Source: a virus
Taxonomy: Duplodnaviria > Caudoviricetes
Virus record (IMG/VR): IMGVR_UViG_3300020037_004820
DNA: 64,000 nt
Strand: one strand, 5' to 3'
The notes beneath the pieces were generated by a model. That model did no database searches and was not told the DNA's origin. It was given only the letters and a program-made list of their open reading frames with translations. Shown one piece after another: positions 7,332 to 57,428 of the stretch. How positions within the stretch are numbered: position 1 is the stretch's first letter; each line of letters starts with the position of its first letter. A program made the position numbers and the translations under genes.

Positions 7332-7408
7332 TGGTCGGGATGACAGGATTTGAACCTGCAACTTTCTGCACCCAAAGCAGACACTCTACCAGATTGAGCT
7401 ACATCCCG
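7332..7408 (-). tRNA. tRNA-Pro(TGG)
   Basis: CGGGATG/CATCCCG, TT-TGG-GT, canonical D and T arms, ACCA. Confidence 0.92.
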
Positions 7409-7418
7409 TTAAGAGAAC

Positions 7419-7608
7419 AATATCATTGCAGATCAACTATGATATTACTTTGCGGCCGTTTCTCGCCGCTAAAGACCTTCTCATGGCCTTTTCTTACACC
7501 AGTGTTCCAAACCATCTACTACGCAGCCTACGCATACACAAAGGTCCCTTTGTACTAATCGTTACTGTATTGATGGATTTATATGGCTTCCCAAGATCAA
7601 CTGGCTGA
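7419..7608 (-). ncRNA. Putative structured RNA between two tRNA-Pro genes; contains a 52-nt exact copy of 57138-57189
   Basis: Hairpins aatatcat/atgatatt and gcggc/gccgc; ccatc/gatgg and ccagt/actgg stems enclose the duplicated segment. Confidence 0.55.
7520..7571 (-). repeat. 52-bp exact dispersed inverted repeat, copy 1 (copy 2 at 57138-57189)
   Basis: Reverse complement is aatacagtaacgattagtacaaagggacctttgtgtatgcgtaggctgcgta, identical to 57138-57189. Confidence 0.95.
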
Positions 7609-7620
7609 CTTCTATTTTTA

Positions 7621-7699
7621 TGGTCGAGAGAGCTGAACTCGAATCAGCATAATCCTGGCTCCAAACCAGACGCATTATTCCTGCTTATGCTACCTCTCG
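7621..7699 (-). tRNA. tRNA-Pro(TGG), second copy
   Basis: CGAGAGG/TCTCTCG, TCTGG-TTTGGAG-CCAGG, ACCA. Confidence 0.8.
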
Positions 7700-7843
7700 A
7701 TATGGATCGGAAAACAATCCTTCTGACTAACTCGGATTGAATTTTGCACTACTATCAATAGTGCTAAGGGCTTCCTTCTATACCCTTTTCGACTCCAGTG
7801 TGCCCTTATTCGCAGTAAGGTAAATAGTCCCTGGATGATATGA

Positions 7844-7984
7844 AATTGCGGAGAATTGGCGAAAAGGAATTTTTTAGGCGCTCTACCAACTGAGCTAATC
7901 TGCATTGGAATTGCAGATGTTGGGTTCGAACCAACGACATCCCGCTTATAAGGCGATGAAACCCTTTCTATCACTACCGCAATT
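7844..7984 (-). ncRNA. YrlA-like Y RNA with circularly permuted tRNA domain
   Basis: Termini pair (aattgcgg/ccgcaatt). Internal order is T arm (gttgg-ttcgaac-ccaac), acceptor closed by a loop (atctgca-attccaa-tgcagat), D arm (gctc-agttggta-gagc). Lies 5 nt downstream of the Ro60 gene. Confidence 0.85.
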
Positions 7985-7989
7985 ATTTC

Positions 7990-9567
7990 TTATTGCTTGT
8001 TATTCGACTTATCAATAATCTCTCTAGCAAAATGCAGAACTTGATCAGACCATCCGCCAAGAATATAAGTTCTGTTATAAAATTCAGGAATGATTGTATC
8101 TTGGTATCCAGCTACTTGAACCAAAAAGACATTAACATTCGGATTAACCGTTTGTCTGTATTTTTGAACAAGTTTCGGAACATCAATATTATTGCCATTC
8201 TGCCAACGGTAATCCTTATATTCAGCGTTGTTCACACCGTATAAGCCCCCATGACCGGCTTGCATATCAGAATATATGAACACGGTGTCCCAATGCTCTT
8301 TTTCCTTGATAGCTTTATCCCAAAACAGCCATATGCCATTTTCAGTGCTTTGTCCAATCTTGTTTCGATCTGCTTCAAATTGCTTGAGCTTATCTAAGAT
8401 AGATTGCTTCTTTCTCACAACTTCTGTGACTAACTTATCCCCAAATCGGCCAATGTGACCTTCCTCAGAAGATAAAGCAGTCAACCATGCTGTTAGATTT
8501 GCAATCTGCGCAACTTCCATTGTTCCCATTGAAGAAGTTGTAGCACCCCAAGCAGAACCACTATTATCGCAAAGCGACATAGTTTTTCCTTCAAACTTAG
8601 GAATGTTTTCGATCGCTTGAAGCAAGCAATCTTCCAGACCATCTAGAACGATAGCTGGAGCATTAGGAACAGCTTTCATAGCACTAAAGTATCTAAAAGG
8701 AAGTTGCTTACCTGTAGCTACTCCTTCCTTTAGCTTATCCATGAACAACTTAGGATCAACTTTATTGTCCAACAGATTTCGAATATTGCGCAAAAGCGCC
8801 ATATGTCCCATTACATTTAGTGCCTCAGTCCAAGACTCTTTATTGGAGCCTTTTGCTGAAATGATAGCTTCCCAGGTTTCTCCTGTTTGAGACAATTCCC
8901 CGCGAACTAGCTTGTTTACAGCATCGCTTTTTGGGTGAACCAAATTTACAACGTCAACCGTCTTTATGGTACGGTTTCGCATTGTATATTTAGCAAGTGA
9001 ATATTCAGATGCCTTTTCAAGAGCATCTTTCCATGCACGCTTTAGAGAATTAGGAATAGCTTTCCTACCAAATCTAGAGATTTGATAAGCCAAACCAACC
9101 GAAGGTTCATCCATTCTTTTTACAATGGACGGAGCATACTGTCTGATTAAAGACGTACCTTTCACTTTAGGATGTTGAGCTGCTCGCACAAGAATAACTT
9201 GAGGAGTTGTACGAATGTTCCACGCATTGCGCAATTCTGCGGCAAGCTTAAGAGTTGCTTCTGGATCATAATCCAAAGCTTTATCAATAGCAGACTCCAT
9301 CAATTCTGATGCGTTGAGTTTATTCCACTCAATAGGCATTAAAGAATCTAAGGTATCATTTAGATGAGTTACAAGAGAGGGAATAACATACTTCGGTGTA
9401 GAAGTTTTCTTCGCCGCTTCACCATCGATATAATATGGTGGCTCTCCAAAAAAGCTAGAAGCAGCCGCCATTTGCAGTGTTGCAATTGGATTCTTTAGAA
9501 ACCAAGAAGAACCATTCATAAAATTCTTATGAGAAGTATCTATAACTTTACGTGTTGTGTTGATCAT
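7990..9567 (-). CDS. rsr: Ro60/TROVE-domain RNA-binding protein with vWA domain
   Basis: HMALLRNIRN, QLPFRYFSA, MIDAS-like CDNSGS, YSDMQ, GGWSDQV; 525 aa. Confidence 0.9.
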   Translation of the reverse strand: MINTTRKVIDTSHKNFMNGSSWFLKNPIATLQMAAASSFFGEPPYYIDGEAAKKTSTPKYVIPSLVTHLNDTLDSLMPIEWNKLNASELMESAIDKALDYDPEATLKLAAELRNAWNIRTTPQVILVRAAQHPKVKGTSLIRQYAPSIVKRMDEPSVGLAYQISRFGRKAIPNSLKRAWKDALEKASEYSLAKYTMRNRTIKTVDVVNLVHPKSDAVNKLVRGELSQTGETWEAIISAKGSNKESWTEALNVMGHMALLRNIRNLLDNKVDPKLFMDKLKEGVATGKQLPFRYFSAMKAVPNAPAIVLDGLEDCLLQAIENIPKFEGKTMSLCDNSGSAWGATTSSMGTMEVAQIANLTAWLTALSSEEGHIGRFGDKLVTEVVRKKQSILDKLKQFEADRNKIGQSTENGIWLFWDKAIKEKEHWDTVFIYSDMQAGHGGLYGVNNAEYKDYRWQNGNNIDVPKLVQKYRQTVNPNVNVFLVQVAGYQDTIIPEFYNRTYILGGWSDQVLHFAREIIDKSNNKQ

Positions 9568-9596: not shown

Positions 9597-9661
9597 ACTG
9601 TAGAGAATAGGCGGTAGAGTGTAATTTTTAACCGAAGTAACTCTAACTTTACTACTACAGT
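9597..9661 (-). ncRNA. Short Y-RNA-like element 1
   Basis: actgtag/ctacagt terminal stem, tagagt/actcta inner stem, TTACTTC and ATTCT motifs shared with the three other elements. Confidence 0.7.
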
Positions 9662-9668
9662 AATTGTA

Positions 9669-9746
9669 TCCAGAGAATCTTCGATAGGGTGATTTTTTGG
9701 TCAGACGTTAATTTCTGAGGATGAATCCCTACCAATCGCTTCTGGA
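9669..9746 (-). ncRNA. Short Y-RNA-like element 2
   Basis: tccag/ctgga terminal stem, taggg/cccta inner stem, TTCATC and ATTCT motifs, internal tcaga/tctga hairpin. Confidence 0.7.
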
Positions 9747-9766
9747 ATTTTTTTCATATGTCCACC

Positions 9767-9835
9767 AAGACAGAGAATTGGTTGTAGAGTGTTGTTTCTG
9801 CAAATTGAAGTAACTCTACTATTTACTGCTGTCTT
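9767..9835 (-). ncRNA. Short Y-RNA-like element 3
   Basis: aagacag/ctgtctt terminal stem, tagagt/actcta inner stem, TTACTTC and ATTCT motifs. Confidence 0.7.
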
Positions 9836-9841
9836 TGTATT

Positions 9842-9885
9842 TGGTGCAAGTGACAGAATTCTGTCACAGGATTCTGTCAAGTGCA
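9842..9885 (-). pseudogene. Scrambled 3' remnant of a disrupted tRNA-Gly
   Basis: Ends CACTTGC-A-CCA, complementary to GCAAGTG of the 5' half at 10385-10426; T-arm fragments gaatcctgt/gaattctgt are duplicated. Confidence 0.6.
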
Positions 9886-9890
9886 ATTTT

Positions 9891-9964
9891 TGGAGCAGGA
9901 TAGGAGAATCGAACTCCTTTAGCTAGCTTGGAAGGCTAGGTCACAACCAATATGTCAATCCTGC
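9891..9964 (-). tRNA. tRNA-Gly(TCC)
   Basis: GCAGGAT/ATCCTGC, CTAGC-CTTCCAA-GCTAG, U73, CCA. Confidence 0.9.
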
Positions 9965-10355
9965 GTTTATGTGTTCTTTCTCTGTGACAATTTGCACAAA
10001 CTAAATCACATTTTTCAATTTCTTCTAAAAGTTCTTTCTCAGAGCAATGAAAACTTCTACTTCCTATATTAAATTCTTTTTTGGATCTATGATCAAAATC
10101 CATAACATAATATGGGTATTTTCTATTACAGTCTAAACAAGGACTAGCCTCTTTCAATAAAATCAATAACTCTCTAATTTTTGCTCTATAGTCTTTAACT
10201 TGAGTGGAAATTTTATCCACATTTTTTCTATAATGTTCTTTTCTTAGAATTTTTTGACAACTTCTACATTGAGACTGTAGACCATCTGGTCTTCTTTTAT
10301 TTCGAGCAAAGGATTCTTCTGCTTTATCTAGCTTACAGCTATAACAATTTTTCAT
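9936..10355 (-). CDS. HNH homing-type endonuclease; its 3' end overlaps tRNA-Gly
   Basis: CxxC...CxxC Zn motifs, MDFDH, KCDLVCANCHRERTH. Confidence 0.85.
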   Translation of the reverse strand: MKNCYSCKLDKAEESFARNKRRPDGLQSQCRSCQKILRKEHYRKNVDKISTQVKDYRAKIRELLILLKEASPCLDCNRKYPYYVMDFDHRSKKEFNIGSRSFHCSEKELLEEIEKCDLVCANCHRERTHKRRIDILVVT

Positions 10356-10384: not shown

Positions 10385-10426
10385 TGATTGGAAGTCAGGC
10401 TCCTTAAACCGCTCAATCACACTTGC
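10385..10426 (-). pseudogene. 5' half of a disrupted tRNA-Gly(TCC)
   Basis: GCAAGTG-TG-D region (GAGCGGTTTAAG)-CCTGA-CT-TCC-AA-TCA, then truncated at the HNH leader. Confidence 0.65.
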
Positions 10427-10648
10427 ATTTTGTTTTACTTATCAGTAGGTCCTTGACGGACCAAAATTATACAATCTTTCTTCCAGATATATGCACCATT
10501 ATCAACAGTAGTTTTACAAATAATTACAAATTGTGGGTCAGTTATATCATCAACTACAGTTGATTGATTGCCAACTGCGCAACTTGAGATAAATAGTACA
10601 GTAGAGGCAATTATTCCACTAATCAATTTTTTAAGCATATTTTCCTTT

Positions 10649-11720: not shown

Positions 11721-12941
11721 TTAGGCATCATCTGTCCCGTCATTTTCCGTATTAAGCGAGATATCTACTTCTCCTTCAATTTCTTGATGATCAGTAGTTT
11801 CATCATTTGCTTCTTTCATGGAATATTCAGGATTAATAATCTTGATTTTCTTTCTATTTAGAGTCAACAAATCGTCATTCTTAACAACTATACCTTCTCT
11901 AACTTTTTGAGTTGGAGCAAATATAGAGTCTCCTGCAACGAAACTTTCTGCTATTTCTTTATTCCATTTTCCTTGATACAGGATAGGAACAAATTGTAAA
12001 CCTAAATTATCACAAAAGGTCTGTGCTTCTTCCAAAGAAAGCCATTTCTGATCATTTTCTGTTTGGAATAGAACGTCAAATATTACTAATCCTTTTTGTC
12101 CTTCTTCTAAACCATAATGGTAACCTTTCTGAATATCTGGCCCATAAATTTCTCCGTAAAGAACATACCCAGGAAATTCCTTAAGTTTGCGCTTTAGATC
12201 GAATCTATGACACATTTGTGCATAAATATCCGAACCATACCATGTAGGTGATTTAGATCTCTTTTGTCTTTGTACAGTATTGCTACCGTAACAGAATTCA
12301 TAGGCAGACGTTATATGCAGGAACTTTTTGATTTTTTCCCAAAGAGTTACTGGCTCATTTGGCAAATAACCTGCGCGCCAGTTCGATCCATGAATTTTTT
12401 CCGAAATCCATACAATGTTTTCTTCGGAAAACGCATGTGGTTCCCATTTAATATTGGTGCAACCATTGTATTCTTTGAAATACTGATTGGTCTTCGGTTT
12501 ATTGCGAACCTTTGGAGCATTTTGATCCTTTGGTTGATTTGCAACAAAAGAAGGAGGATAGTATTTTACTACATCCAGTTCATCTGCAATATCAACGTCT
12601 TGAAGAATATATCCAAGATTGCAAAGTTTAGCAATCTCATCAAAAGGAGCAATCATACCTTGCGATACGAATTTTTGAATTCTACAAGCACGAATACGAG
12701 CTTTAGTAAGCTTAATTTTAGCATCAATCGGGAAAAGATAATTTTCAATCTTCGCAGGAAGGATAGAATTAATAGGTAGATAAATAACTATATCTCCTAC
12801 TTTATATTGTCCTTTACCAACAACAACTTGAAAGCCATATACAGTTGCAATTTCTAATCTAAGAACAGTAGGGTTGGGATGAGGAGTTATTTCTAATATA
12901 GAAGTTTTGCATACTTTAAAATTAGGGTCTTTTATCTTCAT
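11721..12941 (-). CDS. RNA ligase, DRB0094/Rnl2-like, with N-terminal OB fold
   Basis: EKIHGSN (motif I), YGEIYG, IFDV, REGIVVK, KIINPEY. Confidence 0.85.
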   Translation of the reverse strand: MKIKDPNFKVCKTSILEITPHPNPTVLRLEIATVYGFQVVVGKGQYKVGDIVIYLPINSILPAKIENYLFPIDAKIKLTKARIRACRIQKFVSQGMIAPFDEIAKLCNLGYILQDVDIADELDVVKYYPPSFVANQPKDQNAPKVRNKPKTNQYFKEYNGCTNIKWEPHAFSEENIVWISEKIHGSNWRAGYLPNEPVTLWEKIKKFLHITSAYEFCYGSNTVQRQKRSKSPTWYGSDIYAQMCHRFDLKRKLKEFPGYVLYGEIYGPDIQKGYHYGLEEGQKGLVIFDVLFQTENDQKWLSLEEAQTFCDNLGLQFVPILYQGKWNKEIAESFVAGDSIFAPTQKVREGIVVKNDDLLTLNRKKIKIINPEYSMKEANDETTDHQEIEGEVDISLNTENDGTDDA

Positions 12942-36211: not shown

Positions 36212-36274
36212 GGCTCGGTCAAGCATGGCATGGTCATTGCATGGCCTTGACAAGCGCTTGACCGAGCCTATCCT
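36212..36274 (+). promoter_or_regulatory. Sigma54-like box and sigma70-like promoter inside a 13-bp inverted repeat
   Basis: ggctcggtcaagc/gcttgaccgagcc; TGGCATG-gtca-TTGCA; TTGACA-16-TATCCT. Confidence 0.7.
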
Positions 36275-37424
36275 TCATATAGCGTGGCAAACCATCTGTT
36301 TCGGAGGAAACTCTATGTCAGACAAGACTCATTATTATGAAGTTCGAAAGAATGGGTCATGGACCTTTGGTTTTCTAAAGGCTTCTACTGATTCTGAGGC
36401 AATCGAACGACTTGCTCAGGATGAAGTAGGTTTTTTGCAAAGGTTGGACAATGAAGTCACCCTTATTGATAAAGGCGAAACGGAATGGGCAACCCGTGAT
36501 TCGGAGGATAAAGATGTCTCAAACTGAAAAGGTTTTTGGCATTCCAAGTTCTAAAGCGGTTGTAGTGAAAAAAGATCAAAAAGGTGATCCAGTTATTATC
36601 CGATATGGAGATCCAGATTTTCCAGCTACTGAGCCCAATCCTTGGCATCCTAAAAAGAAGGATAACATATGAGTCAGAAAAATATGTGTCAATTGAGAAA
36701 GTTTCCAATTGGAGCTACGTTTCAAGCTCTAAACATGGACGATGAATTTACAGTTTTTCATGTAGCAAAATCTGGAAAGTTTAGAACTGATGGACTTATA
36801 GAGTGTAAATCTGTTGTTCGCTATAACGTCTTCTCCAAAGAATGGAACGAATGCACAAGTTACACAACTTATATACATCCTACTACAGAAGTCGAAGTAG
36901 TAGAAGTAATTATTACTAAGATCAAAGTTGTTCCTGCTAACACTTTTTGCGCGGTTAACTCACAATGACCAAGAAAGAATTGATCGAAGCTCTTTCAAAT
37001 TTTTCTGATGATACTATTATTGTTGTTCCTAACAATTATAATGATGGAATGGACGGTGTAAAATGTCTTTTAAAAGCCTTTGTAAAAGAAGTAAAGTATA
37101 AAACAGAATATATGGGTCACTATGAAGAAGTATTAGATGGACAATTGGTTTGTTTTATCTCTCCAGAATATGAGGTAGGATAATGCAATTAGTCAAAGGC
37201 GATTTGATTAGACTTATTGGTCCTATTAGTTTATATTTAGGAGAAGTTGCTTATTTTGAAGAATTTTGGGATCGACGGACTACGAGCGGGCGCTCTACGC
37301 GTGCTCTCCTTAAGAAAGGATGCAATATTTCACTTTATAAAGGACCAGTTGATTTATCACGAAAACCTGAAAAAGCAGATATGTTTGTATTTTATCATGA
37401 ATATTTCCCAATTGGGAGTAAAGA

Positions 37425-39204: not shown

Positions 39205-39258
39205 AAGCATGGCACGGTCATTGCATGGCCTTGACCCATGCCATGCCGTGCATACGCT
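39205..39258 (+). promoter_or_regulatory. Sigma54-like box and sigma70-like promoter of the second sigma gene
   Basis: TGGCACG-gtca-TTGCA; TTGACC-16-TACGCT; 31 nt near-identical to 36221-36251. Confidence 0.7.
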
Positions 39259-39301
39259 TGCTATAGCGTGATAAGTGGCTTTGTCAACATAAAGGAACCA
39301 C

Positions 39302-42730: not shown

Positions 42731-43231
42731 TGAATTTAGGTACAGGTGATGTAATCATATTGCGCAATAGACAATATGATATAGCTCCCGAATATATTAA
42801 AAATCTTGGTTGGGAATTAGGAAGACAAGATGCTTTATATGTGAAAGCTAAAATATCAATCCCAACTTGTTTGTTGAAAGAAATATCAGATGTGTTTATA
42901 CAGTACGCAGCCCTTGATACTTGGCATATAAAGGTTCAATCTTCTATTCCTTTGCATTGTGATCCTGTTACGGATTGTTCGCATTATAGATTCAATGTCT
43001 CGTATAAAGGTGATTATTGGTTGAATGTTGAAGATTCAACATATCTTATAAAAGAAGGTGATGCAGTTTTATTTAGATCGGATATTAGTTTACACGGAAT
43101 TGATCTTTTTGAAAATAATATTGTCGAAATCTTTTCTGTAGGTATATTTATTGGACGAGATAACTCATGATTAATCATGCGTCTTGCTCTATGAAAATTT
43201 CATATTCGTTTAGTACGAGCCTGGGCGGCAT

Positions 43232-44216: not shown

Positions 44217-44225
44217 AACCATACG

Positions 44226-45006
44226 TTTCTAATCTGGTCTTAAAAAGCCACTACTCCGAGCACAGTACAATCACCGCTCAGATCAGATTAGAAAGGGCAC
44301 GTTTAGTGCCCAATTACATGACTAGTGACAAGTCTCATTTTGGAGACGGGTAATCAGTCCTCCTTGTCATTAGTCATCTTGATTAAAGAGCATACCAGTT
44401 GCACAATTCGGTGCGATCGGTGGAGTCAAAATGCTCAAAAAGGTGATCTCCTACTCCTAATGAGTTAATCATCATAGATAAAGATAGCTCATCCATCCTG
44501 ATAAGATGAAGATGGGACTACTCAAGAGAGAGAATGCCTGGTATCTCCTGAGTATAGTGGAAGGCAAAATAGAATGATACCAACTTAAAATTACATGGAT
44601 TTGACAGCGAAAGCTGTCTCTAGCTAAGTTTTGGCAAGAGAAGTAAGCTAGAGTACACAAAAATTGCAAAGGAAACACTCCTCTGCTGGGAATGTCGCCG
44701 GTTGTTGTAGTGAGAAGTCGGTGCCGTAAAACTCTACATAAGAGGACGAGTATCTCGCAAGGAGAGAAAGGACTTGAGATAGTAGTAATCCGGTGTGTAC
44801 GTCGATACCTACCAACTCGGGAAAAACGAAGCACAGTGAATGCGGTTCTGCTGAAGAGATTATGTTGTCAGAGCTATTCAAACTAGTTCGGATGATGTAG
44901 TTGAACAGTTTCCGAGCGGGTTCCCTGCCCGCTCAATTCAAACACAACAAGGCAACTTAACACAGTCCTTCTGTGAAAACAGTGAGTTGATAGTGTTTCT
45001 TTGCCA
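44226..45006 (+). ncRNA. Putative large (~700-780 nt) structured RNA, possibly of the ROOL/GOLLD class
   Basis: No credible ORF; two 15-bp stems (tttctaatctggtct/agatcagattagaaa; atgactagtgacaag/cttgtcattagtcat), GAAA/GCAA-capped hairpins, many further helices. Confidence 0.6.
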
Positions 45007-45107: not shown

Positions 45108-45188
45108 ATAGAATACTGGTTTAAGCCCAGCATAGGAACCGAAGATGATTCGGTAAACCTATGTCAGACGTAAAAGACTGAATTCTAT
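45108..45188 (+). ncRNA. Putative small four-way-junction RNA
   Basis: atagaat/attctat closes ctgg/ccag, catagg/cctatg (with accgaa/ttcggt) and tcag/ctga. Confidence 0.5.
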
Positions 45189-45198
45189 CATATAAATT

Positions 45199-51330: not shown

Positions 51331-52066
51331 ATGAAAGTTGTTAATAAACAAGTTCCGACAATTTATGTAGAAGTCCAATCATTAAAAGTTGGAGAATTGT
51401 TTAGATATTATCCTAATACAGCCTTGGATGAGGTTTATATGGTTGTAGATTCTTCCCGATTTACAACCACTATAAGTGATTTTCCTAATATACAAACTGT
51501 TGTGTGTTTGAAAACAGGTAGTCTTTATACATCTCAAAAAACTTCCAGAGTCATTCCTATGATGGGACAAGTGGAAATTTGGGATAAGTAATGAAGAGAG
51601 ATTATCAATTTTATTGGATTAAATGGAACCAATCTAAGGAATTGGTTGTAGCAGAGAAAAAAGAAAGTGGATATTATATCCCTGGATGGGAAATTGCTGT
51701 AGATGAGTCCAAGTTTACAGTTTTAAAGAAAATTAAATCTCCAGAGAAAAATTAAGGTGTAAATAATGAGTTTGATTACAGCGTTTGTTATTATGTTTTC
51801 TAATATGGGAAGTAATGCTCCTAAGTTTGAGGTGATTGATATGCCTCCAATGTATATTGTTGCAAATATGAAAGAGTATTCTCCTGAAGATAATGTTCGA
51901 GAATCGATAAAGATTCTTCGGAAGTATACTCCAACATATATGGACATGGAATGATTATAGTAGGTGCAATATGTTTAGAGATAGGAATATTTCTAGGTTT
52001 ATTGCTTAGGTTGAGCTATTTAGCTCGTACTAAACGAAATGAAAAAATTGTGAAGATATTCACATA

Positions 52067-52278
52067 GATTAGGCGGTAGGCTTAAGAGTAGCCAGAGATT
52101 GTAGTTCAATTTCTCATTCCGTTAAAGAGTAATAACTGAGGCTAAGATAGACCAATAGGATAACCAGATCTAGTAACGTAGAAATGTTACTAGAGTTATC
52201 TAAAGAATCCACTGAACAGGAGAGAGTTTGTTTTACAAGGCTATAACCAGTTATTTTTGGTGTAACAACACACTAATC
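52067..52278 (+). ncRNA. RNA mimicking the 23S rRNA L11-binding domain (H43/H44), with two insertions
   Basis: GATTAGGCGGTAGGCTTAAGAGTAGCCA..CCGTTAAAGAGT..GGTGTAACAACACACTAATC aligns to GCCAGGAUGUUGGCUUAGAAGCAGCCAUCAUUUAAAGAAAGCGUAAUAGCUCACUGGU with compensatory changes. Confidence 0.75.
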
Positions 52279-52282
52279 ACGC

Positions 52283-52305
52283 AAGGATCGGTTAACCGAT
52301 CCTTT
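52283..52305 (+). terminator. Terminator after the rRNA-mimic RNA
   Basis: aaggatcggt-ta-accgatccttt. Confidence 0.65.
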
Positions 52306-57128: not shown

Positions 57129-57428
57129 ATGGCAATTAATACAGTAACGATTAGTACAAAGGGACCTTTGTGTATGCGTAGGCTGCGTACAGAAGGCTTC
57201 TATGATAAGGATCTGATTGTAAAATCAGAAAATGGGTATAATTTTATAGATTTAGAGTATTTCACTGATAACACTGTTAAGATAACTTGTATGGAAGATC
57301 TAGAAGGAACTATAGCATATGATGCTTGTATAGATATTGACGAGTTGATAGTTGCATTGAACAGGTTGAAATATTTACATGGAAACAAAAATAAAAACAA
57401 AGACAAAAAAGAAGAAGAAAACATATGA
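57129..57428 (+). CDS. Hypothetical protein whose codons 4-20 equal the 52-nt repeat
   Basis: 99-aa ORF translationally coupled (TAATG) to the upstream gene. Confidence 0.6.
   Translation: MAINTVTISTKGPLCMRRLRTEGFYDKDLIVKSENGYNFIDLEYFTDNTVKITCMEDLEGTIAYDACIDIDELIVALNRLKYLHGNKNKNKDKKEEENI
57138..57189 (+). repeat. 52-bp exact dispersed inverted repeat, copy 2
   Basis: Identical to the reverse complement of 7520-7571. Confidence 0.95.

Follow-up and report, generated by a model that had tools for sequence, protein, structure and literature searches.

The 64,000-nt stretch of DNA analysed here (the window) raises the question of why a structured RNA lying between two tRNA-Pro genes carries the start of a distant protein gene. 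The window belongs to a large phage with a contig of up to 221 kb and 27 tRNA genes. An exhaustive repeat search of the window reveals that the 52 nt at 7520-7571 are the exact reverse complement of 57138-57189, as a first-pass annotation had claimed, and that the match extends to 55 nt with one mismatch. The same annotation held that the match is not expected by chance and that it spans codons 4-20 of ORF 57129. Both points are upheld: the chance expectation of a 52-mer match is approximately 1e-20 to 2e-20, no other exact repeat of the window exceeds 20 nt, and the match covers these codons plus one base.

An assembly chimera, the concern raised together with that annotation, is extremely unlikely to have produced the match. 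The RNA side is identical in two separate assemblies (L005 and L006) and the ORF side in two further contigs (L007 and L008), which together represent three JGI samples, and the unique sequence on either side of each site is likewise the same across the assemblies. Although the assemblies may share related samples and similar software, ordinary reads span a 52-nt repeat, and a second phage carries a true homolog of the RNA segment. Additionally, parts of the RNA are covered without any difference by contigs from three public runs; those labelled as RNA are probably DNA, so expression is not shown by them. The ORF-side contig is absent from the public runs, which is uninformative at that depth.

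The RNA side of the match lies within a conserved structured non-coding RNA on the minus strand, here termed X1, which is assigned to 7409-7612 on the basis of the flanking tRNAs and of conservation. The order on this strand is a Ro60/TROVE gene (7990-9567; Pfam TROVE, E 3e-11), a Y RNA that resembles YrlA and has a tRNA-like domain in permuted form (7848-7980; Rfam YrlA matches it weakly, at E 0.033 and short of the gathering score), a 135-nt spacer, a tRNA-Pro(UGG) with an enlarged D loop (7621-7699), X1, and a canonical tRNA-Pro(UGG) (7332-7408). The YrlA-like RNA behind Ro60 is conserved in relatives. No internal promoter or terminator of X1 stands out above chance, and X1 would be cut from a long tRNA transcript as the flanking tRNAs mature, yielding a discrete RNA of approximately 210 nt.

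Several further features of this neighbourhood were observed. In front of the YrlA-like RNA lie several short stems that resemble Y RNAs but lack a tRNA domain (approximately 9597-9835, minus strand), and relatives carry the same set (L042:9370-9470 and 9815-9970, L043, L044). The tRNA-Pro with the enlarged D loop is itself conserved (L013:3215-3293, L042:11859-11937) and is always associated with a preceding X RNA; the 5' strand of its D-arm is complementary to the variable-loop/T-stem strand over up to 9 bp (in L013), so that an alternative fold is possible. At 9841-9885, 9936-10355 and approximately 10390-10428 (minus strand), an HNH endonuclease gene is located between an apparent tRNA-Gly 5' half and an apparent, hairpin-shaped 3' remnant. 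This tRNA-Gly is whole in L042, and an intact second tRNA-Gly lies between the two pieces in the window.

The 5' domain of X1 (7605-7498) comprises a closing stem, P1 (7605-7601 with 7502-7498), which is preceded by a conserved CA, a small hairpin (7593-7584) and the stem P2, CCAUC/GAUGG (7576-7572 with 7516-7512). P2 closes a loop of 55 nt, the slot, the first 52 nt of which are the matching segment (7571-7520), and this segment folds into a single irregular hairpin, the inner stem of which has 8 bp and is capped by a GGAC loop (7555-7536). The 3' domain (7490-7417) consists of the hairpins H1 (7490-7472), H2 (7469-7452) and H3 (7448-7417). The enclosing stems that the first-pass annotation had named, CCAUC/GAUGG and CCAGU/ACUGG, both form in the minimum-energy fold, and its description of a structured element stands, whereas three hairpins follow the 5' domain rather than the two that it had counted. 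The fold z is -2.3 for X1 of the window and -2.2 for the homolog. An alternative P2, AGCCAU/AUGGUU, was dropped since folding and L042 favour CCAUC/GAUGG, with some support left for both registers.

Comparison with related contigs, which were fetched through close Ro60 homologs, reveals nine distinct sequences of this kind, which fall into three paralog types (X1, X2 and X3) in five phages. Homologs of X1 are found at L013:3012-3209 and L042:9573-9728. X2 is located at 7703-7836 of the window (minus strand), has a slot loop of 7 nt and has homologs in L042, L043 and L045 that show covariation; X3 is present behind tRNA-Met in L042 and L044. The RNAs are 125-205 nt long, and every copy lies within approximately 2 kb of Ro60, with a tRNA or Y RNA ending a few bases before its start. 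Their common plan is a closing stem CCAG/CUGG (once CUAG/CUAG) after CA, followed by P2 and three hairpins, with a P2-enclosed slot that ranges from 7 to 55 nt; in X1 of L042, a loop of approximately 10 nt takes the place of the long hairpin.

Between X1 of the window and that of L013, 8 of 44 pairs are changed on both sides and 99% of the cells of the alignment pair, compared with at most 48% in slid controls, and the four X2 copies behave alike in covariation; these counts come from 2 to 4 related sequences each, and the structure was drawn from the same sequences. In the positions flanking the slot, the two X1 copies differ at 1 of 62. The covariance models of Rfam 15 gave only chance matches to the X RNAs (E up to 10), and no description of the family was found in the searchable literature. 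DNA pattern scans across viral, metagenome and genome contigs returned chance matches or nothing. The covariance model built for the family was sequence-only. The RNA is absent from cultured phage records, and no member is present in the fetched DNA of the more distant Ro60 phages L002, L003, L009, L010, L014 and L015. Judged from these comparisons, X1 belongs to a multi-copy family, as yet uncatalogued, of small and apparently pseudoknotted phage RNAs in the Ro60/Y-RNA/tRNA cluster.

The pseudoknot is predicted because, in every X copy, a strand just inside the closing stem can pair with the loop of the final hairpin. In X1 of the window, GAUC at 7598-7595 is the partner of GAUC at 7434-7431 in the H3 loop. 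The corresponding strands in X2 are GACCA or GAUCA with UGGUC, or GACUA with UAGUC (in the window, 7829-7825 with 7729-7725), and those in X3 are ACUCA with UGAGU or ACUCUA with UAGAGU; the strands covary in the paralogs X2 and X3. The repeated 9-mer pointed out by the first-pass annotation, AGTTGATCT at 7602-7594 and 7438-7430, is present and is explained by the palindromic nature of the pseudoknot core GAUC. As far as the complementarity tells, the pairing may occur within one molecule or between two.

The L013 homolog bears directly on the direction in which the 52 nt were copied. Its slot is identical to that of the window at 37 of 52 positions and forms the same hairpin, the inner stem of which shows compensatory changes in three pairs and a consistent change in one. 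When read in the frame of ORF 57129, the L013 slot contains indels of -1 and -2 and a TGA stop, and its substitutions are spread evenly over the codon positions (3, 5 and 4). Together, these features indicate that the segment evolved as RNA and not as code. The slot has diverged at about the same pace as hairpins H1-H3 (15/52 and 18/84, respectively, between X1 and L013), which argues against a hypervariable guide. On the branch of the window itself, the 3' domain has changed at approximately 6 of its 105 positions (about 6%), so an old capture would not have left both copies identical; the 52/52 identity caps their divergence at less than 5.6%.

On the other side of the match, ORF 57129 (57129-57428, plus strand) is an ORFan of 99 amino acids, the start codon of which overlaps the upstream stop (TAATG) and is preceded by GGAG. 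The copy at 57138-57189 has the same sense as the RNA, and its GC content is 42%, compared with 29% for the remainder of ORF 57129 and 42% for the remainder of X1. It begins directly after the 5' strand of P2 and ends 3 nt short of the 3' strand. Deleting the 52 nt shifts the frame of ORF 57129, which indicates that older sequence was replaced and that the event was not a plain insertion. No credible homolog of ORF 57129 was found: its Atlas matches lie below 0.9, and its remote matches are long repeat proteins, judged spurious from one that was inspected. In the relatives L088 and L089, the portions of syntenic DNA seen do not contain the ORF. The single-sequence structure prediction is poor (pLDDT 47, with residues 1-37 below 50) and says little about the N-terminus.

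These comparisons make it likely that the 52 nt are a native X1 hairpin, a single recent copy of which took the place of older sequence at the 5' end of ORF 57129. Taken as a whole, an X family RNA in the Ro60 cluster combined with a recent one-off copy of its hairpin is the best explanation of the locus and is probably correct; the presence of the long hairpin in only one homolog (L013) counts against it. The fallback idea of the first-pass annotation, a recent recombination between the two loci, is supported. The one-off duplication that it had listed as the opposing outcome also largely describes what is found, in relatives whose genomes were seen in part. The phage of L013, to which L089 is tentatively assigned owing to a shared sample and similar identity, is visible for approximately 10 kb and that of L042 for approximately 42 kb, and a matching gene may lie elsewhere in them. 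The copy probably arose at the hairpin base, by template switching or illegitimate recombination, and short microhomology would have assisted the event; the RNA and gene flanks of the copied segment share only a few bases. It would have survived since the reading frame was not closed and a new N-terminus seems to be tolerated by the protein, with no function required. The coincidence of the ends of the copy with the ends of the module could mean selection or a dedicated mechanism.

Small RNAs that combine a scaffold with a guide include crRNA, omega RNA, the IS110 bridge RNA, TIGR and the DGR template repeat, and X1 resembles them in that a genome-matching segment is held in a constant structured scaffold. 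The first-pass annotation had proposed such an RNA, and in its general form this reading takes X1 as a programmable scaffold with a slot that repeatedly takes up sequence from a phage gene, or passes it to one, and that serves as guide, decoy or repair template. The perfect identity in mRNA sense, the variation of the slot from 7 to 55 nt inside a constant scaffold and the agreement between copy ends and module ends are in line with this reading, and most of the 221-kb genome lies outside the 64-kb window. However, the slot is base-paired and selected for its structure, rather than single-stranded and free to vary as in known guides, and a conserved hairpin that locks in the guide, with both arms matching the target, differs from known guide RNAs. 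The compensatory changes in L013 and the inability of its slot to be read in the frame of ORF 57129 argue against a guide as well. The comparison of relatives that the annotation suggested supports the constant scaffold; in the DNA of their own phages that was covered (approximately 42 kb in the case of L042 and 10 kb in that of L013), the slots of the relatives, including those of X2 and X3, have no match, and no tracking of different genes by the insert is seen there. The 66 ORFs scanned in the window include no Cas, TnpB, IS110 or reverse transcriptase. In contrast to a DGR, with its adenine-specific mismatches, 3' variable repeat and reverse transcriptase, the two copies lack mismatches, and the copy lies at the 5' end of its gene. 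The constant scaffold with a slot of variable length is thus retained from the earlier proposal, whereas a guide, sponge or repair template aimed at ORF 57129 is not, and we regard a programmable RNA as highly improbable. The same low likelihood is given to a related proposal, in which the X RNAs are a new modular class that would exchange the variable arm with protein genes by structure-guided, possibly RNA-templated copying; if true, RNA hairpins would be written into gene starts, which would provide a new N-terminus and a shared regulatory handle.

It is also conceivable, while distinctly unlikely, that an accidental copy was kept as a functional regulatory graft, either through a protein that binds both the X1 hairpin and the mRNA of ORF 57129 or through a hairpin that hides the ribosome-binding site. 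The whole hairpin was copied and is predicted to fold in the mRNA at -14.1 kcal/mol, the second strongest value among 48 gene starts, and the upstream GGGAG is mostly paired by prediction (unpaired probability 0.08-0.38). However, the local fold at this start is ordinary (z -1.0), and ORF 57129 is translationally coupled. The gene flanks faintly resemble the RNA flanks (p 0.04-0.3), which is not significant given the four lengths tried, and there is no second example. The predicted mRNA hairpin may help to hide the ribosome-binding site, with a weak signal in a gene coupled to its upstream neighbour.

The role of X1 itself is approached through known RNAs. The bacterial Y RNAs include YrlA and YrlB (Chen et al. 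2014, PMC4201824), and those encoded by Thermus phage phiLo bind both Ro60 and the PNPase of the host (PMC12135203). Y RNAs and X RNAs are alike in their proximity to Ro60 on the same strand, in the presence of several copies per genome, in a modular build with a variable arm and in probable processing from one precursor. They differ in that the GNCGAA motif, the terminal 5'-3' bulged stem and a tRNA-like domain are missing and in that a loop-loop pseudoknot and three 3' hairpins are present. The motif GNCGAA(N)G is absent from X1 and X2, a weak test alone since the strict pattern also missed the local YrlA; P1 closes the 5' domain only, and no ARAGORN or Rfam tRNA/YrlA match covers X1 or X2.

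GOLLD and ROOL are structured phage RNAs of tRNA clusters with strong covariation and loop-loop pairing. The X RNAs share the location, the covariation and a loop-loop pairing that is possibly intermolecular, and they differ in a length of only 125-205 nt and in having no Rfam model match. Elements of other kinds were noted as well. At approximately 44220-44960 of the window (plus strand), a hairpin-rich, GC-richer element of approximately 740 nt, similar in size to GOLLD and ROOL and without an Rfam match, lies behind tRNA-Met, and a 54-nt piece of it is 85% identical in L088. A small conserved multi-hairpin element behind tRNA-Ser (approximately 45110-45190, plus strand; L088:4527-4615) was not detected as an X member. 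In the more distant Ro60 phage L010, a GC-rich 228-nt spacer between two tRNA-Leu genes (12097-12324) is possibly a structured RNA and not an X RNA. Segments 43198-43220 and 52023-52044, which lie ahead of two non-coding regions, match inverted at 22 of 23 bases and may be a regulatory site, and 36221-36286 and 39205-39270 form a 66-nt direct repeat, GC-richer than its surroundings, with an exact core of 20 nt. Other candidate identities, namely 6S, RNase P, SRP, tmRNA, a known ribozyme or a CsrA site, were dropped in view of the missing Rfam match or consensus.

A different ancestry or function for X1, which would leave the direction of the copy untouched, is a degenerate mimic of the GTPase-associated centre of 23S rRNA (the H42 base to H44, the site of the L10/L12 stalk), with a hairpin added in the manner of the sarcin-ricin loop; this is unlikely. 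When the split ends of the three X1 copies are compared with every position of E. coli 16S and 23S, each copy has its highest score at 23S 1045-1108; of 250 shuffles in which a closing helix was preserved, 6 and 11 attained that score (p approximately 0.02-0.04). The closing helix of X1 is identical to 1051-55/1104-08 with C1102-A1103, the 5' flank is similar, and an unpaired UAA occupies the equivalent junction. This UAA is part of the L10 site, as is a kink-turn (PMC4538822). However, the test was post hoc and against one species, X2 and X3 rank only 6 to 68, and the UAA likeness is confined to X1. A loop of four bases and the variable arm stand in place of the H43 loop (A1067) and the H44 loop (A1095), X1 has an extra 3' domain, and the tandem G-A pairs of the kink-turn are absent upon sequence inspection. 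The sarcin-ricin mimic, for which a bulged-G motif, a GAGA tetraloop and a closing stem are diagnostic, was rejected: its loop would be AAAG, the register is broken in L013, and covariation backs a plain alternative hairpin and not the sarcin-ricin-like letters. A likeness to 16S 404-479 was also discarded, as it is seen in X1 of the window and is not common to the homologs. A stand-alone RNA with its own terminator at 52067-52305 (plus strand) resembles the H43/H44 GTPase centre more typically, and its presence in the same genome speaks for the mimic.

We suggest tentatively, at somewhat less than even likelihood and by analogy, that X1 is a stable protein-binding decoy or scaffold in a phage kit for translation protection and RNA repair. 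The suggestion arises from the genes in its context, since the window encodes, along with Ro60, RlaP, two RNA ligases, Pnkp, a CCA enzyme and MnmA; a peptide deformylase is also encoded. By analogy with the neighbouring Y RNAs, such a role would protect translation during infection.

The 52-nt copy provides a warning: a structured RNA may contain a segment that matches its genome perfectly without being a guide. A new mechanism would be implied only if the copying is recurrent. To judge from the present comparisons, the X family appears to be a more solid novelty than the copy, and its three natural paralogs with covarying strands would make probing easy. For the phage, the copy would be a clean, datable case of non-coding RNA becoming protein-coding and one route by which the end of an ORFan arises, and the X family would add a compact pseudoknotted fold to the little-studied non-coding arsenal of large phages, beside Ro60, Y RNAs and RNA-repair enzymes.
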